This document shows, one piece after another, positions 5,244 through 42,000 of a stretch of DNA of 64,000 nucleotides. How positions within the stretch are numbered: position 1 is the first letter of the stretch; every line of letters starts with the position of its first letter. The translations under genes were made by a program, and so were the position numbers. The notes below the pieces were generated by a model. The model was not told where the DNA came from and made no database searches. It saw nothing but the letters and a program-made list of their open reading frames with translations. This DNA comes from an uncultured Pseudomonadales bacterium (lineage in GTDB: Bacteria > Patescibacteriota > Microgenomatia > UBA1400 > UBA12028): assembly GCA_964509365.1 (NCBI GenBank), contig CAZDWN010000002.1:167671-231670 (forward strand), given 5' to 3'.

Positions 5244-6146
5244 ATGATGATTCAACTCATCGATTGGGTGAAAACTCACAAACTCTCATCATTTTTGATC
5301 ATCGTCCTCATTTTTGTGCTCGCAAGTAGTCTCCAAAATACAAAGTCATCAAATTTTTCTACCACTTCTGTCGCTCCGATGATGGGTTCAGCGGAATTTG
5401 CGAGAACTGATGCAATAAGTGCTCCCGCTATTGGCAAAGTTGGTGTCTATGGACAAAGTCTCCCGCCAGCAGACACCCAAACGCGCATGGTGACGACGGA
5501 TACCAATCTCTCCCTCAAGGTTGATGATGTATCCCAAATCATTTCACGGATCGAATCAGTGGCAAATCAAGCCGGTGGGTACATGATCAACTCGTCGCTA
5601 TCAAAGCCGGAAGGTGCAGCGAGTGGAACAATCTCTATTCGCATTCCAGCTGACAAGCGATCTTCTACCTTGTCAGAGATTCGCGGTCTCGCGGTCAAAG
5701 TTGTCTCCGAAAATGTGAATGGGCAGGACATTACAGATCAGTACGTGGATAATGACGAGCGACTACGGATCTTGGAGTCAACCAAGACGAAATTTGAAGC
5801 AATTTTAGCTGATGCAAAAAATGTGCAAGACATGATGCAGGTGCAGTCACAGCTCCTTTCGCTTCAGAGCCAAATCGATGCTATCAAGGGAGAGCAGAAG
5901 TATCTAGAGGGATCGGCCAAACTCACTCGATTGACGATCTACCTCGCAACTGATGAACTAGCGCTACCATACGCACCAGATACGACCTGGAGACCGACGC
6001 TAGTCTTCAAAGAAGCGGTAAGATCTCTGGTCCTCTCACTTCGAAATGTTGGCTCGCTAGCCATCTGGATCCTTGTCTATTCTCCAGACGCTATCGTCTT
6101 GGCTTTGATCCTCTGGATCATCAAGAAGTTTCTTGAGAGGAAGTAG
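5244..6146 (+). CDS. DUF4349 domain protein (membrane-anchored, coiled coil)
   Basis: The coiled coil RLRILESTKTKFEAILADAKNVQDMMQVQSQLLSLQSQIDAIKGEQKYLEGSAKLTRLTIYL is followed by a C-terminal TM helix, the typical DUF4349 layout. Confidence 0.5.
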   Translation: MMIQLIDWVKTHKLSSFLIIVLIFVLASSLQNTKSSNFSTTSVAPMMGSAEFARTDAISAPAIGKVGVYGQSLPPADTQTRMVTTDTNLSLKVDDVSQIISRIESVANQAGGYMINSSLSKPEGAASGTISIRIPADKRSSTLSEIRGLAVKVVSENVNGQDITDQYVDNDERLRILESTKTKFEAILADAKNVQDMMQVQSQLLSLQSQIDAIKGEQKYLEGSAKLTRLTIYLATDELALPYAPDTTWRPTLVFKEAVRSLVLSLRNVGSLAIWILVYSPDAIVLALILWIIKKFLERK

Positions 6147-13822: not shown

Positions 13823-14149
13823 TCAGAGTATAAAATCCTTATCTACTCTAACATCGATGCCAGTTTTATACAGTATTGCGAGCCGAATATAATATTCCTT
13901 TTCTTCCTCCTTTAGCATTTCCCAGGTTCGCTTTATCGCCAGATTTTTCATATCTTGCCCATGAAGGGCCACGGCCTCGTAATAAAAGGAAAAATACTGT
14001 CCGGTCGAAAAGTGAGAAAAGATTTCAGTAGCAATCAATCGCAGCTCTAGCATTTCAAGACCGTAGGAGTTTTGTTGAGCTGATTCAAGCTGCATGTTGA
14101 GTATTAGAGTCCGATTATTTTTGCATCCTTTTGCATAGCTTCCAGACAC
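13823..14149 (-). CDS. Hypothetical protein
   Basis: 108-aa ORF. Confidence 0.3.
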   Translation of the reverse strand: MSGSYAKGCKNNRTLILNMQLESAQQNSYGLEMLELRLIATEIFSHFSTGQYFSFYYEAVALHGQDMKNLAIKRTWEMLKEEEKEYYIRLAILYKTGIDVRVDKDFIL

Positions 14150-16269
14150 ACTCTGGCCAGAGTCTCGAGATCGATATTGAGATGCTCGATGCCTTCCAGG
14201 ATCTCATCGCGAGTAGCTCCTTTTGCGAATCCTTTCTCTTTGAACTTACGCAAAACTCGTTCGAGCGTCACATCGGCAAGCTTTTTACTCGGCATGACGA
14301 GCGCGCAGGCGACTATAATACCGGTCATATGATCACATGCATACAGTGACCATTCCATGAGGGTCGATGGCAACCGTTGATTTGCGACGCGTGAGTAGTT
14401 ATGAGTGCGGACACTATCTCCCCACATGTCGTCTACTCCAAGTCTTTCCAATGCCTCACTCAGCACGACTGTATGTTGGTCAAATGCTGACTCTGTCTTC
14501 TCCCAGTCCGCATCATGGATGAGTCCAATGATCTTCCAACTTTCTTTCGATTCGTTGACTTCATTTGGTCGTTCGTTCGAAAAATAGTCCCACAAGCCGC
14601 CCATCGCCGATTCAACTGCTTTCATGTGCCCTCGCAAGCCGTTATTCTGTACCAATGATTCCAGCAAGGTCATCGCTTGGTCGCGAGAAAGACTTATTTG
14701 TTTCTTGTCATCCTGGCTTGTCCAGGATCTTTTTGGCCCGGATTCCGGACGCACTTCGTTTGCCGGAATGACGAGTTTTACATTTTTTCCCATGAGCATC
14801 TCAGTCATGCGAACTTGGTCAGCTGTCGGTCGCAAGGTCGGGAATGCGATCACTTCTTTGATCGACCATGTGTTGGTCAAGAACATCACCAGTCGATCAA
14901 TGCCCATACCGATCCCACCGAGCGGTGGCATACCATATTCCATGGCTTCGACGAAATCTTCATCGAGCGGCTGCGCTTCGTCATCTCCCTCTCGCATGTT
15001 TTTCTGTTCGTTCTCAAAACGAGCGCGCTGATCGAGACTGTCGGTGATCTCACTCCAGCCATCGGCCATTTCTTTCGTCCCGACATACAGTTCAAATCGT
15101 TCGACGAAGCCATCCGCATTGCGGTGTGCTTTTGCCAGTGGACTGACTTCTTTCGGGTAATCGATGATCCACGTCGGATTTAAGAGATTCGGCGTCACTA
15201 ACTTGTCAAATATCGCAAAGATCGCCTTGCCTCGCGAAAAAGAGCCTGTCGTCTCGAGTCTATGAGCTTTTAGTTTCTCTTGTATCTCATCATCTGATAC
15301 ATGATCCATGTTCCATGATAAATACTTCTCTATTGCATCCACCATTCGAAGCCGTGGCCAATTGCCTTCCAAACTGATCGTCGTCTCGCCTACTGAAAGT
15401 TCGAGACTCCCATTCACTTTTTCCGCGAGATGCTTGATCAGTCCCTCAGCTGTATCCATCATCGTCTGGTAGTCAGCGTAGGCGTGATACCACTCGATCA
15501 TCGTAAACTCAGGTTGGTGAGTTTGATCGATGCCCTCGTTGCGGAAGTTTCTGGCGATCTCAAACAATCGTTCATACCCACCGACGATCAATCGCTTCAA
15601 ATACAGCTCTGGAGCGATGCGCAGGTAAAAATTACTATCAAGTGCATTCATGTGGGTGGTAAATGGCTTCGCATTCGTCCCACCATACAGTGGTTGTAAG
15701 ACCGGTGTCTCTACTTCGACGAAATTATGGATATCTTGCAGGTACCTGCGCAGTTCCTTTTCGATCAAGAATCGGTCATCAAGCACTTTTTTGACCTTTG
15801 GGTCGATGAGCATGTCGAGGTATCGCTTGCGAAAACGAATTTCTTTGTCGTCTATACCTTGGAAGGTAGCTGGGACAGCCCGAAGCGCTTTGGAGAGCAC
15901 TTGATAGGAATCTGCTTCAATGGTGATCTCTCCTGTTTTTGACTCAATCACTTTACCCGAGACTCCCACGAAATCTGAGGCATCGATCAAGTTCACAAGG
16001 GTCTTGTAGTGATCTTCCCCGACATTCTCTTCCTTCACCATGACTTGGATGCTGCCACTATGGTCGGTCAGAGTTAAGAAAGTGACTTTGCCGTGCTCTC
16101 GCTTACTCATGATCCGGCCAGCAGTTTGCACGTCGCTCCCGAGCGATTCACGGCATGACTGAAGCGTAAAGGTTTTCGCGAATGAGTAGGGATGCACATT
16201 GATCCCAAGTGCTTCCAGTTGTTCTCTCTTTTGCTTCTTTGCTTGGATGGTTTCTTCGAGTCTAGACAT
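14104..16269 (-). CDS. lysS: Lysyl-tRNA synthetase (class II) fused in-frame to a C-terminal HD-domain phosphohydrolase
   Basis: Residues 1 to about 497 are a canonical LysRS (OB anticodon-binding domain, FRNEGIDQTHQPEFTMIEWY, GGIGMGIDRLVMFL, ending ...IAFPTLRP). About 45 residues of linker follow, then an HD domain (RGHMKAV ... IGLIHDADW ... CDHM). One continuous 721-aa ORF. Confidence 0.8.
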   Translation of the reverse strand: MSRLEETIQAKKQKREQLEALGINVHPYSFAKTFTLQSCRESLGSDVQTAGRIMSKREHGKVTFLTLTDHSGSIQVMVKEENVGEDHYKTLVNLIDASDFVGVSGKVIESKTGEITIEADSYQVLSKALRAVPATFQGIDDKEIRFRKRYLDMLIDPKVKKVLDDRFLIEKELRRYLQDIHNFVEVETPVLQPLYGGTNAKPFTTHMNALDSNFYLRIAPELYLKRLIVGGYERLFEIARNFRNEGIDQTHQPEFTMIEWYHAYADYQTMMDTAEGLIKHLAEKVNGSLELSVGETTISLEGNWPRLRMVDAIEKYLSWNMDHVSDDEIQEKLKAHRLETTGSFSRGKAIFAIFDKLVTPNLLNPTWIIDYPKEVSPLAKAHRNADGFVERFELYVGTKEMADGWSEITDSLDQRARFENEQKNMREGDDEAQPLDEDFVEAMEYGMPPLGGIGMGIDRLVMFLTNTWSIKEVIAFPTLRPTADQVRMTEMLMGKNVKLVIPANEVRPESGPKRSWTSQDDKKQISLSRDQAMTLLESLVQNNGLRGHMKAVESAMGGLWDYFSNERPNEVNESKESWKIIGLIHDADWEKTESAFDQHTVVLSEALERLGVDDMWGDSVRTHNYSRVANQRLPSTLMEWSLYACDHMTGIIVACALVMPSKKLADVTLERVLRKFKEKGFAKGATRDEILEGIEHLNIDLETLARVCLEAMQKDAKIIGL
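14706..14772. repeat. Copy A of a ~60-70 nt double-hairpin repeat (TGTCATCCTGGCTTGTCCAGGATCTTT...GATTCCGG...CCGGAATGAC), lying in-frame in the lysS-HD linker
   Basis: Its 28-nt core is identical to 24214-24241. It carries two internal inverted repeats (ATCCTGG/CCAGGAT and ATTCCGG/CCGGAAT) flanked by GTCAT/ATGAC. Confidence 0.7.
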
Positions 16270-16271
16270 AA

Positions 16272-16607
16272 TTATTCCCTCGGCTTTAACATCAATACCT
16301 CTTCATTTTTCACTTTTTGCCAAAACTCATTCCATTGTTTCATGGCAAGTGTAGAAATTACTTCTCCATTTACTGACATCGATACAGGTGACAATTTCTC
16401 CCCTTTGTTTGTACGCTCCACTTTGGTGAGTGGCACCGAGCCTCCACCGAAGAATTCAAAATAGAGACTTTGCAGTAAAGGATAATCGCTTGATTTTACT
16501 AAGATTTGCCGATACTTCTCGTTTTCCTTTAGAAGACGTACCGTGTCTCTCATTTCTGTTACAGTTGCCATGATCAGATTATAGCTCAAAAAACTTGACT
16601 TGCCCAA
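16272..16607 (-). CDS. Hypothetical protein
   Basis: 111-aa ORF overlapping the start of the upstream methyltransferase gene. Confidence 0.3.
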   Translation of the reverse strand: MGKSSFLSYNLIMATVTEMRDTVRLLKENEKYRQILVKSSDYPLLQSLYFEFFGGGSVPLTKVERTNKGEKLSPVSMSVNGEVISTLAMKQWNEFWQKVKNEEVLMLKPRE

Positions 16608-17085
16608 TTACTTTTGTAGGCTTTACGCCAGGGACTTCATGCACATAGCTGATAAACCATTTTGCCTTTGAAGCTTCTTGCTTCACTTTGTCATAAAGCC
16701 TTTTGGTGTGGAGAATGGTAAAAAATGTGAAGACGACATCAGCCGTATCCAGTTTTGCTGTCCAGATATCTGTCAAGTGGAGTTCGACTTTGGCACTGTA
16801 CGGACGTAGTTTCCACCATACTTGCAAAAATCGAAACGGATCGAGTTCATATCCGATGACTTTACCAGCTCCTGCATGGAGAGCTGCTTCGAGGACTTCC
16901 CCATAGCCAAAGCCAAGGTCGATGAAAATATCTCCAGGTTTCAGGACAGTGAGCGCGGACTTGACATCTTTTTGAGGAGTGGGGATGTAATTGCATCCCC
17001 GATAGACCATGTACGAGATCAACACCATGTAGGCTATGACTCCAAGGAGAACGAGTAACATGACCAACTGAAAAACAATGAGCAT
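16579..17085 (-). CDS. Membrane-anchored class I SAM-dependent methyltransferase-like protein
   Basis: N-terminal TM helix and motif I DIFIDLGFGYGEVLEAALHAGAGKVIGYELDP. Confidence 0.5.
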   Translation of the reverse strand: MLIVFQLVMLLVLLGVIAYMVLISYMVYRGCNYIPTPQKDVKSALTVLKPGDIFIDLGFGYGEVLEAALHAGAGKVIGYELDPFRFLQVWWKLRPYSAKVELHLTDIWTAKLDTADVVFTFFTILHTKRLYDKVKQEASKAKWFISYVHEVPGVKPTKVIGQVKFFEL

Positions 17086-17160
17086 ATGACTCTGATCACC
17101 TGACCCGCCTGCAAAAGCTGATGCTTTAGCATCTGCGGGCAGGTCATCTGATCTACTGGT

Positions 17161-17631
17161 CTACTCTATTTCAGCGATTTTGTATTTGACCTTGCCAGCG
17201 GGCGCTTCGACTTCGATCTCTTCGCCGACCTTTTTGCCGACCAATGCGGTACCAAGCGGAGAACTTTCAGAAATTTTCTTTTCGGCCGGATTTGCTTCCC
17301 ACTCACCGACGATCTTGTAGGTGTGCTTGGATTTACCGATGTGGACAGTGACAGTCGATCCAATTGCGACAGTGGTGCGACCTTTTTTGGTCTTTACCAC
17401 TTTCGCTTTGTTGACGAGGACTTCAAGCTCAGAGATTCGGCCCTCCATAAATGCCAAGTCTTCTCTGGCTGCGTGATATTCGCTGTTTTCGGAAAGATCG
17501 CCAAAAGATCGGGCGGTCGCCACGCGCTCGATAGCCACTGGAAGTTTCACATCCTTGAGCTCGGTGAGCTCTGTGACTATTTCGTCGTATCCTTCTTGTG
17601 TGAGCACCACATCATCGGTGATGGTGTTCAT
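17161..17631 (-). CDS. greA: Transcription elongation factor GreA
   Basis: N-terminal coiled coil LTQEGYDEIVTELTELK...SFGDLSENSEYHAAREDLAFMEGRISELE and a C-terminal FKBP-like domain. Confidence 0.85.
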   Translation of the reverse strand: MNTITDDVVLTQEGYDEIVTELTELKDVKLPVAIERVATARSFGDLSENSEYHAAREDLAFMEGRISELEVLVNKAKVVKTKKGRTTVAIGSTVTVHIGKSKHTYKIVGEWEANPAEKKISESSPLGTALVGKKVGEEIEVEAPAGKVKYKIAEIE

Positions 17632-17653
17632 AGTGACCTCCCTTGTAACAAAA

Positions 17654-17676
17654 GTCCCGCTAGAGCGGGGAAATAT
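17654..17676 (-). terminator. Rho-independent terminator downstream of atpC (CCCGCTCTAGCGGG followed by ACTTTTGTT on the minus strand)
   Basis: GC-rich hairpin plus a T-tract in the atpC-greA spacer. Confidence 0.45.
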
Positions 17677-17755
17677 TTACGTCAATTCAAGAAATTGTAC
17701 AGAGTTCTACAGCATTGTCTAGGACCTAGCATTGTTTATTAGAGGCCCCTATACT

Positions 17756-18172
17756 CTAGTGAGAATTCTTGCGACGGTTGGCCACTTTGAGCTCCAAGAT
17801 CGCTCGTCGCAGACTACTTTCGATGATCTTCATCTCTGTATTTGATAGTTTCTCATTTTGCATCGCCTCATAGGCTTTTTTGCGAGCTTCTTCGGCCTTT
17901 GCCTCATTGATGTCTTCGCTACGCACAGCTGCGTCAGCGAGCACGACGATCTTATTACCTGGCTCCACGTTGAGGAATCCCCCAGTGATCGCGAGGCTCT
18001 TCACTTGCCCTTTGATGCGGTAGACAAACTCCGTATCAGACAACTTAGTCATCAGTGGGATATGCCCTGGCAATATCGTCACTTCGCCAGTGGTGGTCAT
18101 GGCAGTGATAGAATCAACTTCTACGTTGAGAAGTTCTTTTTCTTGAGTGACGATGGTCAGTTGCATGGTCAT
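17756..18172 (-). CDS. atpC: F1Fo ATP synthase epsilon subunit
   Basis: 138 aa with a beta-sandwich N-terminus (LTIVTQEKELLNVEVDSITAMTTTGEVTILPGHIPLMTKL) and a helical C-terminus. Confidence 0.85.
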   Translation of the reverse strand: MTMQLTIVTQEKELLNVEVDSITAMTTTGEVTILPGHIPLMTKLSDTEFVYRIKGQVKSLAITGGFLNVEPGNKIVVLADAAVRSEDINEAKAEEARKKAYEAMQNEKLSNTEMKIIESSLRRAILELKVANRRKNSH

Positions 18173-18181
18173 AAATTAAAT

Positions 18182-18406
18182 TTAGTTGTGACTTGAACCT
18201 ATTATGTGTTTCCCCTGGGCCATTGAAACCAAATGAATGGAAAGTCCGTTGAGCTCACCAGTTGTACTGAGCATGTCAGCCAATGCACTCATAAATTTTG
18301 CATCACCGGAGAGTGTGGAAATGATCTCAGCCGCCTGAGAATCTAGTGATTCCTTTGCAACTGGCGCATGCACTTCGGGCACAAGTTCATTTGTTTCCAA
18401 AAACAT
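18182..18406 (-). CDS. Hypothetical protein
   Basis: 74-aa ORF within the atp gene string. Confidence 0.3.
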   Translation of the reverse strand: MFLETNELVPEVHAPVAKESLDSQAAEIISTLSGDAKFMSALADMLSTTGELNGLSIHLVSMAQGKHIIGSSHN

Positions 18407-18420
18407 ATGATCTCCAATTA

Positions 18421-18720
18421 TTAAATTGTTTTACTTGATAAATCAATGATAAGATCTTCATTATCATCGGGTGCGGCGATATTCATCCCTCGCTCTCCAC
18501 ACCGTTTACATTCAAAGACGATCTGCGTCTTCCCATTGCGGATCTTTAACCCAATCGGTCGCATCACACCTCCACATCCATTGAGTCTATCTCCCGGCTG
18601 TCTATCGACATGCAGTGACGTCAGACAGTAGTTGCAGTGATTTCGACTGCTGGTCGGATGTGGCAAGACTTGTCTGCTGCAATGCACGCACACGAATCCT
18701 TGGTTGTTTTCAATGAACAT
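18421..18720 (-). CDS. RNHCP domain protein (Cys-rich zinc-ribbon-like)
   Basis: RNHCNYC...CGGVMRPIGLKIRNGKTQIVFECKRCGE matches the RNHCP signature. Confidence 0.5.
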   Translation of the reverse strand: MFIENNQGFVCVHCSRQVLPHPTSSRNHCNYCLTSLHVDRQPGDRLNGCGGVMRPIGLKIRNGKTQIVFECKRCGERGMNIAAPDDNEDLIIDLSSKTI

Positions 18721-18754
18721 GTTTTAAAGTATCAAGTATCGATTTCTCAAGGCC

Positions 18755-18988
18755 TCATCGAATTATATGTCCGTCACGCACTAACTTTAACATTACCGTA
18801 TCTCTCAGTGCACGCAACTCACTGATTTCCTGTGGAGAAAATCCATTGGCAGCTAGTCTTGCCTCATCAAAGTCCGGGACACTCATATCCTGTACGCTCA
18901 CAGCGTTGTCCATTCTTTTTTCTGTAGCCAAACCACGAATGATTTGATTTGCAGCAGTGATTTGAGATAAGTTTTTTTCTCTATCCAT
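18755..18988 (-). CDS. Hypothetical protein
   Basis: 77-aa ORF between atpD and the RNHCP gene. Confidence 0.3.
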   Translation of the reverse strand: MDREKNLSQITAANQIIRGLATEKRMDNAVSVQDMSVPDFDEARLAANGFSPQEISELRALRDTVMLKLVRDGHIIR

Positions 18989-19015
18989 ATGTATTGGTAC
19001 TTGTTCGTTGTTACT

Positions 19016-20416
<1,401 letters not shown>

Positions 20417-21301
20417 TTATTTCAAAGCTAATGCGGCTGTGGTTATATCCAATAATTCTGACGTAATTCCTGCTTGTCGACTCTTATTATACTCGAGTTT
20501 TAGATTCCCTACGATCTCTTTTGCATTGTCCGAAGCATTCTTCATCGCGACCATACGAGCACTGTGTTCACTCGCCTTGGCTTCCAGCATGATTTGAAAG
20601 AATCCATTTTCGGTGTAAAACGGCAATAAGAAATCCAAAATATCTTGAGGTGACGGTTCGAATGTATACTCCATCTTCGAGAGAGGTTCGGTCTTTGGTT
20701 GTGGCTGCATACCCTCTGCTTCGACCTCTTTGATCGCGATCGGGAGGAGCATGTTCACTTCTGGGCTTTGAGACAACGTACTGACAAACTGCATGTGAAG
20801 TGAGCGAACACTACTAAACTCGCCTTTCAAAAATCCTTTGACGAAGATTTCTGCTATCGGCAAGATATCGGAAAGCACGAGTTTGTCACCAAGACCAGAA
20901 AAGTCTGCGACGAGGGGATAGCCATATTTGATGGCAAACTCACGCGCTCTGCGGCCGACGGCGATAATTTTTGGATTTCGCATCGTCGAAAGTAACTCAT
21001 TTGCGGCACGGAACAGATTTGTGTTCAAACTGCCAGCGAGTCCTTTATCGGTCGAGACCAAGATCAAGAGTTCGGGTGCAGTTGGGTTGCCATGCTGCAA
21101 CAAGACATGAAGTCCAGAGTCCGCATTTGAACCGATAGTATGAAGCATTTCAAGGAGTTTGTGTGTGTATGGACGGCTCGCCAAAGCTTGCTCTTGGCTT
21201 CGACGCATCTTACTTGCTGCCACCATTTCCATCGCCTTGGTGATCTTTGCGATGTTTGTAGCTGACTTGATGCGGGATTTTATGAGTCGTGCTTGCGCCA
21301 T
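20417..21301 (-). CDS. atpG: F1Fo ATP synthase gamma subunit
   Basis: 294 aa with an N-terminal MAQARLIKSRIKSATNIAKITKAMEMVAASKMRR and the C-terminal helix typical of gamma. Confidence 0.9.
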   Translation of the reverse strand: MAQARLIKSRIKSATNIAKITKAMEMVAASKMRRSQEQALASRPYTHKLLEMLHTIGSNADSGLHVLLQHGNPTAPELLILVSTDKGLAGSLNTNLFRAANELLSTMRNPKIIAVGRRAREFAIKYGYPLVADFSGLGDKLVLSDILPIAEIFVKGFLKGEFSSVRSLHMQFVSTLSQSPEVNMLLPIAIKEVEAEGMQPQPKTEPLSKMEYTFEPSPQDILDFLLPFYTENGFFQIMLEAKASEHSARMVAMKNASDNAKEIVGNLKLEYNKSRQAGITSELLDITTAALALK

Positions 21302-21376
21302 GGTTATGTAGAAGCAAGAATTAAGAAATACGAATCAAGGAAAAAATTCCATTATTCATGCTTCATGATTCTTGAT

Positions 21377-22879
21377 TCATGATTCGGTTATCATGAGCTC
21401 ACTATGAACCTCGTTGAACTTTTTGATTAATGCTTTTAAGAGCGTTTCGATTTCCTCATTCAACTTCTGCTCTTTTTTGAGAAGTGCGTAGACTTCTTGT
21501 CCTTCAGTACTCATGTATTCCAGGAACATTTTTTCCCAGGTGACGACTGATTCCTTTTTCACGGTATCCAAGAGGCCTCGTGTACCGGCATAGATGACGG
21601 CGATCTGCTCGGTGACATCCATAGGTCGATCCCAACCTTGCTTTAACAGTTCGGTGAGACGTTGTCCGCGGTCAATACTCGCTTTGGTCTTTGGATCGAG
21701 ATCCGATGAGAATTGCGAGAAAGCTTCGAGTTCACGAAATTGTGCAAGATCCAGCTTCATACTTCCGGCGACCTGTTTCATTGCCTTGATTTGGGCACTT
21801 CCACCGACACGTGACACAGATGTACCGACGTTGATGGCAGGCTTGATACCAGCGTTGAAAAGCCCTGATTCCAAGAAAATCTGCCCATCAGTGATACTGA
21901 TGACGTTTGTTGGAATGTATGCAGAAATATCATTTGCTTGGGTTTCAATGATTGGGAGAGCGGTGATCGATCCACCACCATTTTTTTCATCCAATCGACA
22001 CGCTCGTTCGAGCAAGCGACTGTGCAAGTAGAAGACATCTCCCGGATATGCTTCACGACCAGATGGACGACGAAGCAGCAAAGAGACTTCGCGATATGCG
22101 ACTGCTTGCTTTGAGAGATCATCGTAGATCACCAAAACATCCTTACCTTGGGCCAAGAAATATTCAGCGATGGCGGTACCCGCGTACGGTGCCAAGAATT
22201 GCATTGCAGCTGGATCAGATGCGGCAGCCGAGACAATCGTCGTATATTCCATGGCCCCATACTTTTCCAACAGAGCAGTCGTTTGCGCCAAGAATGATTG
22301 TTTCTGACCGATGGCGACGTAGACACAGATGACACCTTTGCCTTTTTGGTTGATCATCGTGGTGAGAGCGACAGCTGATTTGCCTGTGCCTCTGTCTCCG
22401 ATAATGAGCTCACGCTGCCCGCGACCGACGGGGATCATCGCATCAATAGATTTGATACCTGTCTGCAATGGGACGGTGACAGATTTACGATCGATGACAC
22501 CAGGAGCAATTTTCTCAAGCGGCTGATACGCACTGATATCAAATGCACCTTTCCCATCGATCACGTGACCGAGCGTATTGACGACGCGGCCGATGATCGC
22601 ATCACCGACACCGATTGAGAGAATTCTTCCTGTGGTTTTGACTTCTTGTCCAGTCGCAAGACCAGTACTGTCTGAGAGCAATATGACACCAACTTCTGTC
22701 TTTGAAAGGTTAAATGCGAGACCTTCGTTGCCATTTTCAAAGGTGACGATCTCACCCATCATTGCGTCATCCAGTCCTGAGACTTTGACGATACCGTCAC
22801 CTAAAGAAGTGATGATACCCACTGATTCGACAGTGGTTTGAAATGTGGTGGTTTTGATTTGGTCAAAGATTGTTTTCAT
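21377..22879 (-). CDS. atpA: F1Fo ATP synthase alpha subunit
   Basis: 500 aa with GDRGTGKSAVAL and a conserved C-terminal helical domain. Confidence 0.95.
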   Translation of the reverse strand: MKTIFDQIKTTTFQTTVESVGIITSLGDGIVKVSGLDDAMMGEIVTFENGNEGLAFNLSKTEVGVILLSDSTGLATGQEVKTTGRILSIGVGDAIIGRVVNTLGHVIDGKGAFDISAYQPLEKIAPGVIDRKSVTVPLQTGIKSIDAMIPVGRGQRELIIGDRGTGKSAVALTTMINQKGKGVICVYVAIGQKQSFLAQTTALLEKYGAMEYTTIVSAAASDPAAMQFLAPYAGTAIAEYFLAQGKDVLVIYDDLSKQAVAYREVSLLLRRPSGREAYPGDVFYLHSRLLERACRLDEKNGGGSITALPIIETQANDISAYIPTNVISITDGQIFLESGLFNAGIKPAINVGTSVSRVGGSAQIKAMKQVAGSMKLDLAQFRELEAFSQFSSDLDPKTKASIDRGQRLTELLKQGWDRPMDVTEQIAVIYAGTRGLLDTVKKESVVTWEKMFLEYMSTEGQEVYALLKKEQKLNEEIETLLKALIKKFNEVHSELMITES

Positions 22880-22882
22880 AAG

Positions 22883-23236
22883 TTAATCTCGTTTATCATC
22901 GTAGTATTTCTCGATGTCATGATGAAAGCCACTTATTTTTCCTGCTACACCTTTCTTTTCTTCTAATTTCTTTGCTTTCTTCTCTAGTCTTTTTTCCACT
23001 TTCGGCGCAGCTAACAGTGATCGAAAACTCATTTCGATATCGCTACCAACATCTTCCATTTGCGAGTCCGAGAGTTCGATTCCATACTTCTTGCCGAAAT
23101 ACTTCCCAAGCGCCATGTAATCACCACTCTTTTCCTCAATTTTGCTCCAGTGAGCTTTCACAAACTCAGCAATAACGTTCGAATAATTGTGCCCTCTTAA
23201 TCGATCATACGGACTGAAATTATTCGATTCAGTCAT
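22883..23236 (-). CDS. Hypothetical protein inserted between atpH and atpA
   Basis: 117-aa ORF with a K/E-rich C-terminus. An extra ORF at this operon position is unusual. Confidence 0.35.
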   Translation of the reverse strand: MTESNNFSPYDRLRGHNYSNVIAEFVKAHWSKIEEKSGDYMALGKYFGKKYGIELSDSQMEDVGSDIEMSFRSLLAAPKVEKRLEKKAKKLEEKKGVAGKISGFHHDIEKYYDDKRD

Positions 23237-23243
23237 AAGGAAC

Positions 23244-23713
23244 TTAACTTATACTTTTTGTAATTTGATTGACTTTACCTGCCAACGACAGATCTATGCG
23301 TTTGCCACCGATCGTGACACGCAAACCACCCAAGATTTCAGGGTTGACCTTGTATTCAAACTCAGACCCTTGAGATTTGAGAGTCTTCTCAATCTCTGCT
23401 TGTTGATCTTTATCAATTTTTATCGCTGATTCAATAATAATTTTCATATTTAAGTCCAATTAACAGCCGTATCAATGTCTTCCAACAATACTTTCATTCC
23501 CACAGAATTTTCTGATAGACGCACTGCATTTTCTTCTGCATAAGCAATAGTATTTATGATTTGCACCTGTCTATCACTTTCGCTGGACAACATCAGTTCA
23601 ACTGACGCTCTCAGATACTCGACAACATACAATCTCTCACTTGCTGTCAGTCCAACTGGATCGACAATACTTCTTCCAATTTTCCAAACGATTTCTTCAC
23701 AAGAACGAGCCAT
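23244..23713 (-). pseudogene. atpH: ATP synthase delta (OSCP) subunit split into two frames (N-terminal 87 aa and C-terminal ~70 aa) by a frameshift near 23450-23460
   Basis: The N-terminal ORF (23450-23713; EEIVWKIGRSIVD...IINTIAYAEENAVRLSEN) aligns with the delta N-terminal helices. The C-terminal ORF (23244-23459; IIESAIKIDKDQQAEIEKTLKSQGSEFEYKVNPEILGGLRVTIGGKRIDLSLAGKVNQI) is a clear delta C-terminal domain. The two frames differ by one nucleotide and overlap by 10 nt. Confidence 0.55.
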
Positions 23714-23716
23714 ACA

Positions 23717-24202
23717 TTAGATTGCTTTGGCTAGATCTTTGATTGATTGTGAGATCAATGACTTATGTGTCTTATCATCTACTTCTTTGCCGATGACTTT
23801 ACTTGCAATCGCAACCGAGAGCTTGAGCACTTCTTTCTCTGCATCTTCTTGCTTGCCTTTGATCTCAGCATCGATCTTTGCCATATCCTTTGCTCGCTGC
23901 GCATTCACTTCTTCCTTTGCATCCTTGGATAGCTTTGATTTGAGATCTTTAGCCTCTGATTTTGCGGCATCAATAACTGCCGCGGCATCTTTGTCAGCTT
24001 GCACTTTTGCTTTCTTTTTCATCGCATCGACTTGCTCTCGCTCACGCAGCGATTCTTCAGCTGCTCTGTTTGCTTCGTCGATTTTAGTGCGACGATCATC
24101 AAGCATCTTTGTCACTGGCTTTGTCAAGAAATAGGTCAATGCACCAAACACCACACCAAAGTTGATGAGTTGAAAGATGATTTGTAATACGTTTATTTCC
24201 AT
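23717..24202 (-). CDS. atpF: F1Fo ATP synthase b subunit (likely start MEINVLQ at 24202; the upstream in-frame extension is made of the repeat element)
   Basis: TM helix IIFQLINFGVVFGALTYFL followed by a long charged coiled coil, in the expected operon position. Confidence 0.8.
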   Translation of the reverse strand: MEINVLQIIFQLINFGVVFGALTYFLTKPVTKMLDDRRTKIDEANRAAEESLREREQVDAMKKKAKVQADKDAAAVIDAAKSEAKDLKSKLSKDAKEEVNAQRAKDMAKIDAEIKGKQEDAEKEVLKLSVAIASKVIGKEVDDKTHKSLISQSIKDLAKAI

Positions 24203-24213
24203 ACTGCGTGTAT

Positions 24214-24273
24214 TGTCATCCTGGCTTGTCCAGGATCTTTCCCAAGAAAAGATTCCGGTTAAACCGGAATGAC
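24214..24273. repeat. Copy B of the double-hairpin repeat, in the atpE-atpF spacer
   Basis: Contains TGTCATCCTGGCTTGTCCAGGATCTTT...GATTCCGGTTAAACCGGAATGAC. In the extended atpF reading frame it encodes SWERSWTSQDD, the same peptide as in the lysS linker (PKRSWTSQDD). Confidence 0.7.
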
Positions 24274-24284
24274 AACTCCTATTA

Positions 24285-25447
<1,163 letters not shown>

Positions 25448-26508: not shown

Positions 26509-28751
26509 ATGGTCGTCCCTGAGTCAGTGAACGTCTTTCCTGCTTCAGGCACGAACTGCCAGTCGTAACTATTGGAATGAAGTGTCAATTTGAGGACCCC
26601 ATAGGTACTCTGGTCAAACACTTCACTATTTGGTTGACGGACAGCTAAAGTCGTGTGGTTTGCTCCACCAGTACCGACGACGAACTCTCGAATGCCTCGG
26701 ACAGGATCAGCGACGCCGTTTGCATCTTGCGGTGCAAATCGCTCATACGTGTGATCATGGCCTGAGAGGATGAGGTCTGCATTCTTACTATAGAGAAGTG
26801 CAAACATACTCTTCATGTTGATACTTGCGCGTCCACCAGATGAGTGCACTGGAATATGGTAATAGGCCATCGTGCACTGTGTTGGGTTATTCGCAAGATC
26901 TTGCTGCAACCACACATATTGTGGTGAATTCGCGTTACATCCACCTGCTTCTCCACAGTTGGAGTTGAGCACAACGATATGCCATGCACCTTTGTTATAA
27001 CTGTAGTACCCCTTTGTCGGATCACCGGCACTGGCACCGAAATAGTTAAAGTATCCACTGGCCATAGAATTCGTAGCGTTGCAAGCGGTAGATTCAGCTG
27101 GAGTGGCGCCGCCATCAGTCAAATACTCGTGATTACCGACAGCAGGATAGGTGATGGATTTAAATTGTCCCCAACTTGTGTCATAAGATGCATTATATGC
27201 TGCCAACGAACCACAGTAGTATTGATTGTCTCCGAGAGAGATGACTGCTGATGCGCTCATGGAAGCGATCAATGAGGCCGTCGCCTTGGCCCGGCAATTT
27301 GCACTCGTGCCGTTTCCGTTATTAAAGCTTGCGATTAATGGGTCACACGCGATATCTCCTGCAGCTGCGACCACTGGATCAGCACTTGGTGTGGCAGTCG
27401 GAGTAGGACTTGGTGTCACGGTAGGTGTCGGCGTTGGAGCTATGGTTGGGGTTGGTGTCGGGGTGGGAGTACCAGTCGTCGCGACGTTCACGACGAGTGT
27501 CGGCTTATTTACCGTTTCTCGTGATCCGTAATACACGGCATCGTTCGGTGAGGTATTCGCGATCGCGAAATCATAGGTTCCATTGCCAGTTACCGTCCCA
27601 GCTGGCAAAATAGCTTCGAGCCACAGAGCCACTTTTGATGGATTCGGGAAACTTGTAATAGCACTACCGAGAGCTGGCGCATTTGCCCATGTCAGGGTGC
27701 TTTCATTCCAACTTCCCGTTGGTCTAAAAATTTGGCCACTGATCGATGATCCATTGACTGGTGCGAGCACTTTCAGGCTCGTACTCGAGATCGTCGATCC
27801 AGCAGGAATCCCCGTGACGACGAAACGTACGAAACTCTTCATCGTGCGCGCAGCATCATTTTGGACTTTGAGATCCGGATCTGCTCCATAATTGACGTTG
27901 ACCGTGTTCGACTGAATATATGCATCTTCAGTTGAGGTAAATGTCAGCGGTCCGGTGACAACTGGAAGGGCGTCGGGGCTTGGCGATGGCATGACAGTCG
28001 GTGTCGCAGTCGGCATGATTGTTGGTGAGGGAGCTCGAGTCGGTGTCGCTGTTGGCGTCACATCTGGAGTGACTAGAGGTGTTGGGGTCGGTGTATCTGT
28101 CGGAGTGACCGTTGGCACTGGGGTTGGCGCCGCCCAAGTGAGTACCAATGTTGGTTTGTTCACCGTTTCGCGTGATCCAAAATAGATCGCGTCAGTTGGC
28201 GAAGTGTTCGCAATTACGACATCATAATTTCCGTTACCAGTCACAAACCCAGTAGGAAGTGTGGCTTGTGTCCACGTAGCGGTCTTTGAAGGATTCGGGA
28301 AACTCGTAAGAATGGTTCCCATGGCAGGAGCATTGGTCCATGTCAACGTATTTTCAGTCCAGGCTCCTGTCACTCGATAGATGGCTCCTCCAATGGCTGA
28401 TCCATTCGCAGGAGCGAACATTTTCAGAGTCGCACTCGTAATAGTCGCCCCATCTGGAATACCAGTGACACTAAATCGAACGTAGCTCCTCATGGTACGT
28501 ACGGCATCATTTTGGACTTTGAGATCTGGGTCAGCTCCGTAATTCACGTCCACGGTATTTGACTGAATAAACGCATCCTCAGTCGAGACAAAGGAGACCG
28601 CTGTATCCGCCACCGCCGGCGCCGTGAGGATCCGAGTTGCGAATACCAAAGCAGCCGCGATAGTTACTATCGCAGCTGCAAGGGCTATATATCGTTGATT
28701 TTTGGACACAATTGAGTTTTTCATATTGTGAAGTATATCACAATAACTCAA
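26499..28751 (-). CDS. Secreted protein with two tandem DNRLRE domains, P/T linkers and a C-terminal purple-acid-phosphatase-like metallophosphatase
   Basis: Two ~155-aa repeats (STEDA[FY]IQSNTV[DN]VNYGADPDLKVQNDA...SRETVNKPTLV) and PT-rich linkers. The metallophosphatase motifs AAAGDIACDP, LGDNQYYCG, AVGNHEY and SGHDHTYERF are all present. Confidence 0.7.
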   Translation of the reverse strand: MSYCDILHNMKNSIVSKNQRYIALAAAIVTIAAALVFATRILTAPAVADTAVSFVSTEDAFIQSNTVDVNYGADPDLKVQNDAVRTMRSYVRFSVTGIPDGATITSATLKMFAPANGSAIGGAIYRVTGAWTENTLTWTNAPAMGTILTSFPNPSKTATWTQATLPTGFVTGNGNYDVVIANTSPTDAIYFGSRETVNKPTLVLTWAAPTPVPTVTPTDTPTPTPLVTPDVTPTATPTRAPSPTIMPTATPTVMPSPSPDALPVVTGPLTFTSTEDAYIQSNTVNVNYGADPDLKVQNDAARTMKSFVRFVVTGIPAGSTISSTSLKVLAPVNGSSISGQIFRPTGSWNESTLTWANAPALGSAITSFPNPSKVALWLEAILPAGTVTGNGTYDFAIANTSPNDAVYYGSRETVNKPTLVVNVATTGTPTPTPTPTIAPTPTPTVTPSPTPTATPSADPVVAAAGDIACDPLIASFNNGNGTSANCRAKATASLIASMSASAVISLGDNQYYCGSLAAYNASYDTSWGQFKSITYPAVGNHEYLTDGGATPAESTACNATNSMASGYFNYFGASAGDPTKGYYSYNKGAWHIVVLNSNCGEAGGCNANSPQYVWLQQDLANNPTQCTMAYYHIPVHSSGGRASINMKSMFALLYSKNADLILSGHDHTYERFAPQDANGVADPVRGIREFVVGTGGANHTTLAVRQPNSEVFDQSTYGVLKLTLHSNSYDWQFVPEAGKTFTDSGTTMCH
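27491..28616 (-). repeat. Intragenic tandem duplication encoding the two DNRLRE domains
   Basis: The two protein repeats are about 70% identical, and DNA strings such as gtttctcgtgatcc recur at about 27515 and 28160. Confidence 0.5.
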
Positions 28752-28752
28752 T

Positions 28753-39044: not shown

Positions 39045-42000
39045 TTAAGGGCCTACGCTCACATTCTGAGCGATGGCGTCATCAAATAAGATATCAAATG
39101 TTCTTCCAGTATTTACTTCACCGAGCACTAGACGACCTACATTCGTCGTTCCGAGATCATCGGAGGTGCTTGAGAACGTCGTGTCCAGCGTGCCGTCGTA
39201 CCAGACTTCATGCGTGCTTGAGGTACCGTTGATAATGCTGTGGAGTTCGACACTGTGCCAAGCATTTTGCGTTGGGACGGTCGTACTACACGTATTCGTC
39301 GCGGTCTTTTCATTGCGCAGACAGAGTTTGTTGGTAGTGCCATCGATATACACTTTGATGAGAGCTACATCACTACTATCTCGCATCGATACCAGTCCGA
39401 CACCAGATCCGACTGCTTGCGACTTCATGTTGAAGTATGTTCGCAGATACACATTTGGCTGCGAGGTCGACAACGTCTTACGCAAGTTCGTTGCAGCACT
39501 TGTCGTATTTCCCTCTGCGGCATAGGTGCCAGCGTGGACAGTCGTCGTCTGTGACGAGAAGTTGTTATTCGTCGTCCAGTAACTCAATGATCCTGACTCA
39601 AAATCTTCGCTCAAGATTAGCAGTGGCAACGCATAGTTTTGCGTTGTCGTATTGCCAGATGTCACCGTGACAGAGGCTAATTGAGTCGTGTACCCAGTTT
39701 TGCTTGCCGTTACCGTATACGTGCCTGATGCTACACCAGAGAGCGTATAGACACCTGATCCATTCGTGGTTGCAGAGCCTCCAGAGTAGGATACAGTGAC
39801 TCCACTGACTGCTGCAGACGTACCCGCGTCAGTTACTGTTCCCGTGATCGTACCGATATTGGATCCAGTCAACGCGATGTTGACTGTCGACGTACTGCCA
39901 GCGTAGACCGTGGCACTACCCGTGTTGTTCGTGTAATTGGTCTTACTCGCCGTCACAGTATAGGTTCCAGGAGCGACGTCGCTGAGCGTGTACACTCCAC
40001 TCCCATCAGCAGTGGTACTCCCACTACTGATACTGACTCCAGCTCCGCCGAGGGTCGCTGAGGATTGTGCATCAGTGATTGTTCCCGTGATCGTTCCTCC
40101 TGCACTTCCCACTCTGACATTTTGGACAACGACATCATCAAAGATGACATCGTAGGTTCGACCAGTTGTGGTCTCACCGAGATAGATTCTTCCAGTGTTG
40201 TTTGTCCCAAGATTTGCACTGCTACTCGTAAGAGTGGCAATGGATGTTCCATCGAGCCAAACTTCATGGGCACTTGCAGATGAACCATTGACGAAGACGT
40301 GCATCTCAATACTGTGCCAAGTGTTCGCCGTTGGTACCGTTGTCGAACACGTGCTTACTGCCGTAATATCATTTCTCATACAGAGCTTATTCGTTGTCCC
40401 ATCGATATAGACCTTGAACATTGCTCCGTCCGCAGCTGTTCGAGTCGCGATCAGTGAGACATTTGAGCCCGACGCCTGAGAAACAAGCTTATAATACGCT
40501 CGGTAATACACGTCGGCATACGATGATGCAAACGTTTTCTTTGCGTTCACGGCTACAGATCCAGTGGTACTTCCTTCTGCACTATACGTTCCGTAATGAA
40601 CGTTTGAAGTTTGCGCTGACATGCTTGCAGTTGAAGTCCAAGCGGTCATATTTCCTGTTTCGAAATCATCCGCAAATATTCGCAGAGGTAACGCGAAGTT
40701 TTGTGTGGTCGCAGTGGCCGCAGTGACGGTGACACTCGCTGCTTTGGTCGTATACCCCGTCTTTGATGCCGTTACGTCATAAGTGCCTGGTGTGACTCCG
40801 GTAATGGTATAGACACCTGACCCATTGGTCGTCGTGCTGCCACCTGAGTATGAGACAGTCACTCCACTGACCGCTGCAGAGGTGCCAGCATCAGTGACCG
40901 TGCCTGTGATATTTCCAGTGGTTGGAGCCAGTGAAAAGTTTTGAGTGACGGTTCCAGTCGTATTCATTGAGACATTTGGGTTCTGCGTCGTATACCCGGT
41001 CTTACTCGCAGTCACGGCAACGGTGCCTACCGGGACATTCACGAGAGTGTATGTTCCTGCGGCACTGGTGGTCGTACTTGATCCTGAGTAGGAGACAGTC
41101 ACACCACTGACATTTGCAGTTGAGAGCGAGTCAGTGACGGTCCCGGTGATCGACCCGACGGCTACACCTGACTGAGCATTTGCAAGGATGACATCATCGA
41201 AGACGACATCAAACGTGCGGCCAGAGTTCGATTCTCCCAAGAGAATTCTTCCGACATTGTTGGTACCCAGACTATCACTCGTACTCGTGAGTGAGGAGAC
41301 CGCAGTACCGTCATACCAGACTTCACGTGTACTTGAGGTACCATTGATGATGGTATGGAGTTCGACACTGTGCCAAGCATTTTGCGTTGGGACGGTCGTG
41401 CTGCACGTGTTCGTCAACGAGATTTCATTGCGATAACACAGTTTTCCTGTCGGTCCATCGATATACACTTTGTTGATTGCCGCATCAGCCGATGTGCGCA
41501 TAGCGAGCAGTCCCATACCTGATGCTGTTGACTGAGACTTCGTATAGAAATAAGTACGATAGTACAGATTGGAATATGTACTTGCCAACGTCTTTCGTAA
41601 GTTAGCAGTCGCACTTGCCACATTTCCTTCTGCAGCTTGCGTTCCAAGATTGTACGTAGTGCCCTGGACCGTTATCGCGCTACCAGTGTTGGTCGTCCAT
41701 GCACTCGTATTTCCTGATTCAAAATCATCACTGAAGATGACTGCTGGCATTGCAAAGTTTTGAGTAACGACACTTCCAGTGGTCGTCGCCACATTTGCAG
41801 ACTTTGTCTCATACCCAGACTTGCTGACAGAGATTGCCGCTGTACCAGTACCGAGACCGACAATCGCATAGTTTCCGCTTGCATCGGTCGTCGTAGATCC
41901 GCCTGGATAGGTGACTGTGGCTCCATTGACTGGACTTGTGGTCCCAGCATCAGTGACCGTACCGGTGATTGATGCATTGTTTACCAATGAGGCATTTTGA

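Follow-up and report, generated by a model that had tools for sequence, protein, structure and literature searches.

A family of small palindromic double-hairpin elements, probably mobile in Patescibacteria, with copies in the linker of a LysRS-HD fusion and in an atpE-atpF spacer

Introduction

The genomes of Patescibacteria (CPR) measure about 1 Mb and are regarded as poor in mobile elements. In the 64-kb stretch of DNA analysed here (the window), the same small double hairpin occurs twice, once within the open frame of a fused LysRS-HD gene and once between two genes of the atp operon. What is this repeat, and did it create the fusion, as an earlier note on this DNA had suggested? We propose, with good confidence, that the two copies belong to a widespread family of small non-autonomous palindromic elements that spread and are tolerated in frame within genes.

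Results

The two copies, both in sense orientation relative to the minus-strand genes around them, lie within 1 nt of the positions given in the earlier note and have the following parts:

14707 to 14772, minus strand: copy A, 66 nt (22 codons), read in frame within the lysS-HD ORF
14741 to 14772, minus strand: hairpin 1 of copy A (5' in gene sense), GTCATTCCGG-CAAACGAAGTGCGT-CCGGAATC
14707 to 14729, minus strand: hairpin 2 of copy A (3' in gene sense), GATCCTGG-ACAAG-CCAGGATGAC
24215 to 24273, minus strand: copy B, 59 nt, within the 82-nt atpE-atpF spacer
24251 to 24273, minus strand: hairpin 1 of copy B, GTCATTCCGG-TTTAA-CCGGAATC
24215 to 24237, minus strand: hairpin 2 of copy B, same sequence as hairpin 2 of copy A

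Both copies share the plan GTC-(hairpin 1)-C-spacer-G-(hairpin 2)-GAC. Alignment confirmed the claimed 28-nt identical core (14705-14732 and 24213-24240), and a search of the window with 27 nt of it matched only 14706-14732 and 24214-24240, with 0 matches expected from 100 shuffles. The second hairpin claimed for both copies was also confirmed, as its pattern matched the window only at 14741-14772 and 24251-24273 (0 expected by chance). When the gene-sense strand was folded, copies A and B were more stable than their own shuffles (z = -3.0 and -5.2); structure prediction had been proposed as a check. A covariance model trained on 72 members of the family scored copy A at 75.2 bits (E 6e-17) and copy B at 68.7 bits; the third-best match in the window reached 12 bits, and there were no copies beyond A and B. 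Rfam had no match in the window at the gathering threshold, and neither copy was matched by a relaxed search (E up to 5) of positions 14000-25000. The tRNA/tmRNA scan found none.

Copy B lies, as had been claimed, between genes of the atp operon:

24285 to 24512, minus strand: atpE (ATP synthase subunit c; Pfam ATP-synt_C), upstream of copy B
23717 to 24202, minus strand: atpF (ATP synthase subunit b; Pfam ATP-synt_B), downstream of copy B

The true start of atpF is the ATG at 24202, which gives the MEIN start common to relatives, and the ORF 23717-24292 that runs through copy B is a spurious TTG extension of atpF. The claim that the repeat is translated (RSWTSQDD) in both contexts thus holds for copy A, which is in frame, and fails for copy B, where the peptide appears in the spurious ORF only. 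The atpE-atpF spacers of four syntenic relatives (L117, L119, L121 and L122) are without the element; by this comparison, copy B is a lineage-specific insertion. On the mRNA strand, CTTTTCTT directly follows hairpin 1 of copy B and forms a weak terminator-like site. Such sites are at chance level overall in the region, and this one does not qualify as an intrinsic terminator, since its U-rich tail is weak, occurs at hairpin 1 of copy B only and is absent from the family consensus. It is speculative that copy B acts on atp mRNA, by stabilising it or by attenuating it after atpE, and such a role would be secondary.

The earlier note had proposed a search for further copies, and these turned out to be abundant in other public genomes. 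Scanning with the hairpin 2 pattern GATCCTGGNNNNNCCAGGATGAC, the loop left free, gave more than 116 loci in about 55 assemblies among the matches listed. The hosts among these listed matches were overwhelmingly Patescibacteria MAGs, plus some Nitrospirota; about 90% of them had the ACAAG loop although the pattern had left it free, and most had a partner hairpin 0-45 nt upstream. Copy density reaches 4 per 8 kb in some MAGs. The elements are mostly about 55-100 nt long, and a Peribacteria form with cargo is about 135 nt. The apical subtype of hairpin 1 in copy A also occurs in L021, L051, L058 and L101, and the 66-nt subtype of copy A recurs in Ddl of an unrelated MAG (L021, VILANGVRPESTKDRSWTSQDD). 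There were 0 matches to hairpin 2 in viral contigs. A literature search found no description of the element family, which we judge to be REPIN/MITE/RPE-like in kind and new as a family.

Two inverted copies of one hairpin unit (GTCAT - 7-8 bp stem - CTTGY loop - stem' - ATC) make up the element, with a spacer of 0-45 nt between them; at its simplest, hairpin 1 (GTCATTCCGGCTTGCCCGGAATC) is of the same type as hairpin 2 (GATCCTGGACAAGCCAGGATGAC) in reverse complement. The gene-sense consensus is 5'-(Y)GTC[ATTCYGG..CCRGAAT]C - spacer - G[ATCCTGG ACAAG CCAGGAT]GAC(R)-3', with terminal inverted repeats 5' GTCATYCYGG and 3' CCRGRATGAC, which supports the claim of a REP/MITE-like double hairpin framed by GTCAT/ATGAC. 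A GTC/GAC stem closes 72 of 72 copies. Base pairs of hairpin 1 covary among these members (UA52/CG17, GC64/AU8 and CG30/GC28/UA9), as does the flanking Y..R pair (CG29/UA16 of 72). Hairpin 1 has a consistently bulged base beside a covarying pair. In copies outside the search pattern, the hairpin 2 stems are of at least 14 distinct sequences, perfectly complementary and all framed by G-AT..AT-GAC, with a WCRAG loop in 22 of 28. Conservation is confined to the shape, the loop and the GTCAT/ATGAC frame, and the stem sequence is free. The GATC and CCWGG in the hairpin had raised the ideas of an uptake signal or a restriction site, which we set aside, since an uptake signal would have to be far denser than the copies in this window and the stem varies.

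Many copies lie inside genes. Among 84 two-hairpin copies, 25 are in sense orientation within long ORFs and up to 8 are antisense, and about 30% of copies lie within genuine housekeeping genes, including Fpg. Reading frame is kept by 24 of the 26 copies that have at least 240 nt of open frame on each side (1/3 expected), and Pfam domains were found on both sides of the element in all ten spanning proteins scanned (LepA, CysRS, CCA enzyme at two loci, Ddl, enolase, PheRS-beta at two loci, DNA ligase and MurB). Of the sense frames, the in-gene copies use the two that are free of stops and no other. The stretch from GTCAT to ATGAC is usually no multiple of 3 in length, and in-frame copies need a variable 0-2 extra nt. 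Orthologous in-gene copies of MurB and Fpg are 87-97% identical against 71-79% for the host genes, in a test that is biased, since exact matching had retrieved the two copies of every pair; this higher conservation could reflect selection for function, not selfishness.

Since the element is absent from the atpE-atpF spacers of relatives and the MurB loop is variably filled, we consider it mobile. Among orthologues the MurB loop is mostly empty, with the element in P0121, P0122 and P0125 and other palindromes in others. Comparison of the empty MurB sites (L126 and L127) with the filled L007 showed about 6 nt replaced and no clean duplication, at about 70% identity. No Y1/HUH transposase was found in the 3690 ORFs of 118 loci (L001-L118) and the window, about 0.93 Mb of element-bearing DNA, with IS200 and IS608 queries validated as Y1_Tnp proxies and a RAYT query validated only weakly. 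All-against-all clustering of neighbour ORFs found no recurrent gene family beside the element, only scattered housekeeping families, and the element neighbourhoods revealed no parent insertion sequence whose ends match.

The strongest alternative is that the hairpins are a host-selected cis-acting DNA or RNA signal (an mRNA stabiliser, an attenuator or a protein-binding site) kept by purifying selection and not by selfish spread. The loop and the GTCAT/ATGAC frame conserved across phyla, the compensatory changes in the stems, and the MurB and Fpg copies that are more conserved than their hosts would fit such a signal, and so would CUUUUCUU after hairpin 1 of copy B, just past atpE, whose product is needed in excess. 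However, the copies sit in unrelated genes and spacers that have no common context, in two reading frames and in both orientations, and intergenic copies show no orientation bias relative to their flanking genes (both opposite in 19, both the same in 12). Presence or absence at orthologous sites, several palindrome families in one loop and a decaying copy in L117 (described below) also argue against it, the conservation test carries the bias noted above, and the terminator-like sites do not exceed chance. We therefore regard a host-selected signal as improbable and favor the reading that the family is mobile and tolerated.

Could the in-gene copies be intron-like intervening sequences that are cut from the transcript and never translated? 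Defined, structured termini closed by the GTC/GAC stem, and a location inside essential genes, might suggest so. Precise excision, however, would shift the frame, because the distance from GTCAT to ATGAC is usually not divisible by three; the continuous open frame kept by nearly all testable copies, the use of the two stop-free frames only and the absence of any matching Rfam ribozyme or intron family also speak against it. RNA excision was rejected on frame continuity and is very unlikely.

Copy A lies in a fused LysRS-HD ORF of 721 aa (14104-16269, minus strand) with three parts:

14824 to 16269, minus strand: LysRS core, residues 1-482 (Pfam tRNA_anti-codon and tRNA-synt_2)
14698 to 14823, minus strand: interdomain linker, residues 483-524, which hosts copy A
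14104 to 14697, minus strand: C-terminal HD-type domain, residues 525-721, and stop codon

The NCBIfam lysine--tRNA ligase model matches residues 6-481. Copy A encodes residues 500-521 (VIPANEVRPESGPKRSWTSQDD); its claimed in-frame reading was confirmed, with 22 codons and no stop. AlphaFold2 gives residues 473-520 a pLDDT below 50 and the HD-type domain a confident fold. In an alignment of 31 fusions, H548, H585-D586, D588, H599, H623 and D646 of this domain are invariant; more distant LysRS-HD fusions carry a precomputed PF01966, there is a weak HDIG match (E 0.006), and a PDB sequence search with the domain had no match.

Fusion of LysRS to the HD-type domain is common among the relatives of this protein. 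The HD motif already follows the LysRS core in 113 of the 120 best LysRS homologues (51-81% identity), and element-free fusions extend down to 51% identity; named sources, few among the 120, are Woesebacteria, Cerribacteria, Pacebacteria and Saccharimonadia, which represent several Patescibacteria classes. The linker in these homologues is K/S/T-rich and variable in length and sequence, with a median of 31.5 aa, and only two of the 120 (the window protein and P0016) have an element-derived linker peptide. In the three closest relatives examined (L118, L121 and L122; 81%, 81% and 77% identity), lysS-HD is fused and has no element that the model can detect. An exhaustive phmmer search with a 32-aa window peptide matched only an unrelated tandem-repeat protein. 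To look for an empty site in the same species, metagenomes were scanned with the 22 nt that lie upstream of copy A, and this returned only an unrelated contig sharing 28 nt.

Because the relatives are already fused without the element, copy A is by these alignments an insertion into the pre-existing linker of a LysRS-HD fusion. Copy A is pristine (75 bits) and therefore far younger than the fusion. A 66%-identical orthologue (L117) has a degenerate, decaying copy at the 3' junction of copy A, and this remnant suggests that copy A might be old; such an age fits poorly with the pristine sequence of copy A, unless the element was re-inserted or converted.

The earlier note had proposed that the repeat made the fusion: lysS and HD would once have been separate genes, and the spacer with the repeat between them would have lost its stop codon. 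A comparison of lysS loci in relatives had been named as a check. Copy A does make up about half of the linker, with its frame open, and intergenic spacers are among the typical habitats of the family. The comparison just described contradicts the proposal already: the closest relatives and most of the best homologues are fused without the element, the few named examples of such fusions fall in several Patescibacteria classes, and copy A is much the younger. A fusion made by the repeat thus has hardly any probability left. Chance similarity, or ordinary conserved coding sequence common to the two places, has nothing in its favor except the low copy number in the window and is already refuted, with a negligible probability, by the zero chance matches expected for either pattern, the hundreds of related copies in other genomes and the non-coding nature of copy B.

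Discussion

The comparisons show that the element reaches new sites in the genomes of Patescibacteria, and that coding regions tolerate copies that are in frame, free of stops and in a surface loop or linker. Copy B is a lineage-specific landing in the atpE-atpF spacer, and copy A an in-frame landing in the disordered linker of an old LysRS-HD fusion that added 22 residues. A free stem beside a fixed shape, loop and GTCAT/ATGAC frame suggests that a putative structure-specific enzyme, acting in trans like the REP/RAYT or other HUH systems, probably recognises the element as a DNA hairpin and moves it.

A broader reading, which we offer only tentatively, is that a cross-phylum GTCAT...ATGAC superfamily colonises essential genes of Patescibacteria and is kept by a putative hairpin-specific enzyme, or consists of hairpins that have acquired a host function. 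If true, it would account for the conservation of shape, frame and loop across hosts from Woesebacteria to Nitrospirota, and for in-gene copies that outlast the host sequence. The smallest bacterial genomes would then hold a new system of mobile elements, and this system would be a general source of the lineage-specific inserts in their core proteins.

For the more modest reading of a mobile and tolerated family, the consequence is that a palindromic element sits in frame inside aminoacyl-tRNA synthetases, LepA, enolase, and cell-wall and repair enzymes of Patescibacteria. It accounts for some unexplained inserts in CPR core proteins and can distort marker-gene alignments and domain annotation, and its copies map naturally permissive sites in essential enzymes. 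The fixed shape, frame and loop with a free stem point to a putative structure-specific DNA enzyme. For the window itself, the origin story of the LysRS-HD fusion is corrected.

A single-strand HUH transposase, as in IS200/IS605, reads hairpins that lie subterminally, carry a bulged base and are flanked by conserved nucleotides. The bulged base of hairpin 1 beside a covarying pair resembles IS200/IS605 ends and their PATE derivatives in how it may work only; the end hairpins of the element are mutually inverted, whereas those of IS200/IS605 have the same orientation, and no Y1_Tnp was found near the element in the 118 loci and the window.

REPs and REPINs are mobilised by RAYTs (REP-associated tyrosine transposases), whose genes typically have REPs on their flanks. 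Like REPs, the element has a short hairpin unit with a conserved single-stranded head, here GTCAT with a 7-8 bp stem; a REPIN, the mobile form, likewise pairs two inverted units across a spacer, and covarying stems with head and shape kept are as expected for structure-specific recognition. The classical REP head is GT[AG]G, in contrast to GTCAT. REPs are extragenic by definition, while about 30% of element copies are intragenic; the copy number in this window is low, and the 0.93 Mb of element-bearing DNA held no RAYT/Y1 gene, the RAYT query being weak.

As in bacterial MITEs (Correia/NEMIS, ERIC, RUP, BOX and others), the element is short, has neither coding capacity nor transposase gene of its own, has terminal inverted repeats, and is present or absent between relatives; occasional in-frame fusions with host ORFs, also known for MITEs (PMC10969869), are shared too. 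It differs in that neither a target-site duplication (in one MurB empty/filled comparison) nor a parent IS was found, that its termini are halves of local hairpins, and that the family spans phyla with a very highly conserved frame and loop.

A review (PMC10969869, citing Ogata et al. 2000) describes Rickettsia palindromic elements (RPEs) as small palindromic non-autonomous repeats of reduced genomes, often in frame in unrelated housekeeping genes, where they add a short peptide at tolerated positions. The element differs from RPEs in its unrelated sequence and in its peptides, which have no Pfam or NCBIfam match, in its length (about 55-100 nt against about 100-150 bp), in its hosts (Patescibacteria and Nitrospirota, not Rickettsia), in its use of two reading frames, and in its architecture, in which a 23-nt hairpin unit is doubled in inverted orientation. 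It is alike in being palindromic and non-autonomous, in living in reduced genomes and in inserting in frame into housekeeping genes; the RPE phenomenon of Rickettsia is repeated in an unrelated reduced-genome lineage.

Two copies of a double-hairpin element in the window

The sequence read at both sites confirmed where an earlier note had placed two copies of a small element, which in gene sense reads GTC-hairpin 1-C-spacer-G-hairpin 2-GAC and has GTCAT/ATGAC as its outer frame.

14104-16269, minus strand: lysS-HD ORF (721 aa), a class II lysyl-tRNA synthetase (LysRS; residues 1-482), then a linker, then a C-terminal HD-type domain
14772 to 14707, minus strand: copy A, in the linker, in gene sense GTCATTCCGG-CAAACGAAGTGCGT-CCGGAATC-CGGGCCAAAAA-GATCCTGG-ACAAG-CCAGGATGAC
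24285-24512: atpE, upstream of copy B
24273 to 24215, minus strand: copy B, in the 82-nt atpE-atpF spacer; compared with copy A, its hairpin 1 loop is shorter and its spacer different

Matches to a 27-nt core and to the second hairpin pattern were confined to these two copies, with none expected from shuffles of the window, and the covariance model found no third copy in the window. The copies share an identical stretch of 28 nt in the alignment and have the same orientation relative to their host genes. In RNA structure prediction each folded better than shuffled controls. Hairpin 1 of copy B leads into a weak U-rich tail downstream of atpE, any role of which is speculative.

Copy A is exactly 22 codons long (residues 500-521) and lies largely in a segment, residues 473-520, to which AlphaFold2 gives a pLDDT below 50; the domains on either side of it are modelled confidently. 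The HD-type assignment is based on invariant H/HD/D columns in the alignment, PF01966 in more distant fusions and a weak HDIG match. The peptide RSWTSQDD, which the earlier note gave as translated in both contexts, is in frame in copy A; in copy B its frame exists only in a spurious, TTG-extended form of atpF. By homology, atpF starts at the ATG at position 24202.

Structure and distribution of the family

Public genomes, one per species, were scanned with the hairpin 2 pattern, loop free (GATCCTGGNNNNNCCAGGATGAC), and at least 116 loci matched. About five of the listed loci (Propionivibrio, Kocuria, Streptosporangiaceae, Burkholderiales and a Poriferihabitaceae MAG) look like chance matches because their loops are odd and the partner hairpin is absent. 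The remaining listed loci come from about 55 assemblies, mostly Patescibacteria (Levyi-, Davies-, Gottesman-, Roizman-, Shapiro-, Woese-, Blackburn-, Peri-, Gracili-, Sacchari-, Berkel- and Uhrbacteria, and Kazan), together with several Nitrospirota MAGs. Others are TPA MAGs labelled Gammaproteobacteria (L024, L051, L058, L106 and others), and some of these labels look wrong because housekeeping proteins of L051 and L058 share 61-62% identity with Levyibacteriota or Woesebacteria-like proteins. Among the matches listed, the loop is ACAAG in about 90%, and most have the partner GTCATTCTGG...CCAGAATC 0-45 nt upstream of hairpin 2. In the loci retrieved, the covariance model found many extra copies, as many as four within 8 kb.

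The RNAalifold consensus of 72 copies has a 3-bp closing stem (GTC/GAC) and two 7-bp hairpins, with compensatory changes in hairpin 1 (UA52/CG17, GC64/AU8 and CG30/GC28/UA9, the last beside a bulged base) and a covarying flanking Y..R pair. Covariance-model copies, in whose selection the exact pattern played no part, show no fewer than 14 distinct hairpin-2 stems, each perfectly complementary (ATTCTGG, ATGCTGG, ATCCTGAA, ATTCCGGG, ATCCCGAA, ATCCCCGA, ATTCTCAG and others); all variant-stem copies are framed by G-AT...AT-GAC, and the loop is WCRAG in 22 of 28. Because the stems differ yet pair perfectly within a constant frame, what is conserved is the shape, the GTCAT/ATGAC frame and the loop, while the stem sequence is free. 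In its simplest form hairpin 1 is of the reverse-complement type of hairpin 2, so that the element reads as an inverted doublet of one unit. Its many stem variants make the GTCAT...ATGAC architecture look like that of a superfamily.

Several loci carry other forms. Eight Peribacteria loci (L009, L010, L038, L057, L078, L094, L107, L108) have a form of about 135 nt with the same two end hairpins and, between them, a conserved cargo (about 90-110 nt; AAGCGTTAGCGCG...TTCGTTTCACTCTG.ACACAGG) that may face either way relative to the hairpins. The high-GC MAG ERP125453_co1_232 (L012, L023, L026, L031, L066, L103), which is not Patescibacteria-like (protein identity 27-34%), has tandem half-unit arrays (CCTGGACAAGCCAGGATGACG repeated) at contig ends, which suggests a very high copy number breaking the assembly. 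L105 and L109 contain further units such as GTCATTGCGAGCGTAGCGAAGCAATC.

Insertions in coding genes

Among 84 two-hairpin copies, 25 lie in sense and at most 8 in antisense inside long ORFs; intergenic copies have no orientation bias. Of 26 copies flanked on both sides by 240 nt or more of open frame, 24 keep a single continuous frame, and an assembly gap lies in one of the other two. Sense copies are read in two frames (...HSGE..RLQN..RSWTSQDD and ...VILGSE..PES..DPGQARMT), and the third is blocked by a TGA in hairpin 2. Pfam domains flank or surround the insert in LepA, CysRS, CCA-adding enzyme (two loci scanned, one with two copies), Ddl, enolase, PheRS-beta, ATP-dependent DNA ligase and MurB; further hosts (Fpg, MiaA, ATP synthase gamma, an ABC ATPase and others) were identified by sequence only. 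The copy A subtype recurs in Ddl of an unrelated MAG (L021) as VILANGVRPESTKDRSWTSQDD. The distance from GTCAT to ATGAC is as a rule not divisible by three, and cutting the element precisely out of the RNA would therefore disrupt the frame. The simplest reading is that in-gene copies are translated.

Mobility and insertion sites

The atpE-atpF spacers of four syntenic relatives (66-81% LysRS identity) are 5-57 nt long and have no element. Most MurB orthologues have nothing inserted in one particular loop (L126, L127), which in three database proteins (P0121, P0122, P0125) holds the element. In L124 (4001-5065) the same loop carries a GTCAT...ATGAC double hairpin with different stems (GTCATTCTGAGCGAAGTCGAAGAATC...GATCCC..GGGATGAC; peptide VILSEVEESRD..FGRDD), and in L125 (1392-2387) an unrelated G/C-rich palindrome (SPLTEGRLRGE...); palindromic inserts also occur there in P0126, P0128 and P0136-P0138. 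In the CCA enzyme, different subtypes lie at nearly the same site in two MAGs. The MurB and CCA sites are insertion hot spots at permissive loops. In the one pair of empty and filled MurB sites compared, no clean target duplication was readable.

Origin of the lysS-HD fusion and age of copy A

An HD motif follows the synthetase core in 113 of the 120 best LysRS homologues, and the element-derived peptide is found in only two of these sequences, the window protein and P0016. The linkers of the LysRS-HD homologues are variable and K/S/T-rich (median 31.5 aa vs 45 aa in the window protein). The closest relatives also have fused lysS-HD genes, in which the covariance model did not detect the element. 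Thus, the LysRS-HD fusion is much older than the pristine copy A, and the proposal that the repeat made the fusion is rejected.

In the syntenic relative L117, the 66%-identical orthologue contains a decayed copy (21 bits, E 0.0055) whose 3' junction is that of copy A. Either an old insertion at this site was later renewed by re-insertion or conversion, perhaps from a copy like B, or the linker was struck twice; recurrent insertions do occur, as in MurB and the CCA enzyme.

The fused proteins, common among the 120 best database matches, are annotated only as lysine--tRNA ligase, and the few with a named source are from Patescibacteria. A PDB sequence search with the HD-type domain found no relative. 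Some HD proteins (YqeK type) hydrolyse Ap4A, a product of LysRS, so that a functional coupling of LysRS with the fused domain is conceivable. Separately, 28 nt of the window (14767-14794; CATGGGAAAAAATGTAAAACTCGTCATT), covering the flank in the lysS linker and the element's first 6 nt, are identical to positions 5601-5628 of an otherwise unrelated JGI metagenome contig (L123), which has no other similarity; this match is unexplained.

Other features of the window

Between atpF and atpA (22883-23713) two small ORFs stand where one delta (OSCP) gene is expected, and only one matches PF00213. The gene tables of four syntenic relatives (L117, L119, L121, L122) mark this arrangement as a clade trait; in some relatives the atp operon also has extra ORFs without a Pfam match and an RNHCP-domain ORF. 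A sub-threshold Rfam match to IS605-orfB-II RNA (18381-18537, minus strand; 33 bits vs a gathering score of 88, E 0.018), near neither copy A nor copy B, is probably due to chance. Large ORFs have internal repeats in four stretches:

27364-29834, minus strand: large ORF with internal repeats
39072-41975, minus strand: large ORF with internal repeats
47000-51232, minus strand: large ORF with internal repeats
61417-62456, minus strand: large ORF with internal repeats

Among the repeats are low-complexity runs of the GGTGTCGG type, paralogous blocks 95-300 nt long and a unit present five times at intervals of 195 nt, and the ORFs probably encode big surface proteins.

Mechanism and comparison with known systems

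The element is repeated, structured, polymorphic in presence and tolerated in frame. We infer that a structure-specific enzyme would move it in trans as a DNA hairpin. No Y1/HUH match was found in 3690 ORFs of the element loci L001-L118 and the window (the IS200/IS608 queries were validated, the RAYT query weakly); ORF clustering across loci found no recurrent neighbour gene beside the element, and viral contigs had no match to hairpin 2. The hairpins could still serve a host function, since orthologous in-gene copies are more conserved than their host genes in a comparison biased by the finding of these loci through exact matches; however, the only unbiased case, L117, is decaying.

The element matches no Rfam family, and searches of the literature for its sequence, its peptides and palindromic elements in Patescibacteria/CPR turned up no account of it. 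The earlier reading of a REP/MITE-like repeat is supported, although REPs are extragenic by definition and this element has copies inside ORFs. The closest structural parallel is the REPIN, an inverted REP doublet. The closest functional parallel is the Rickettsia palindromic elements, which are in-frame selfish palindromes (PMC10969869), but the element differs from them in sequence, its peptides having no Pfam or NCBIfam match. We regard it as a new family within a known kind of element.
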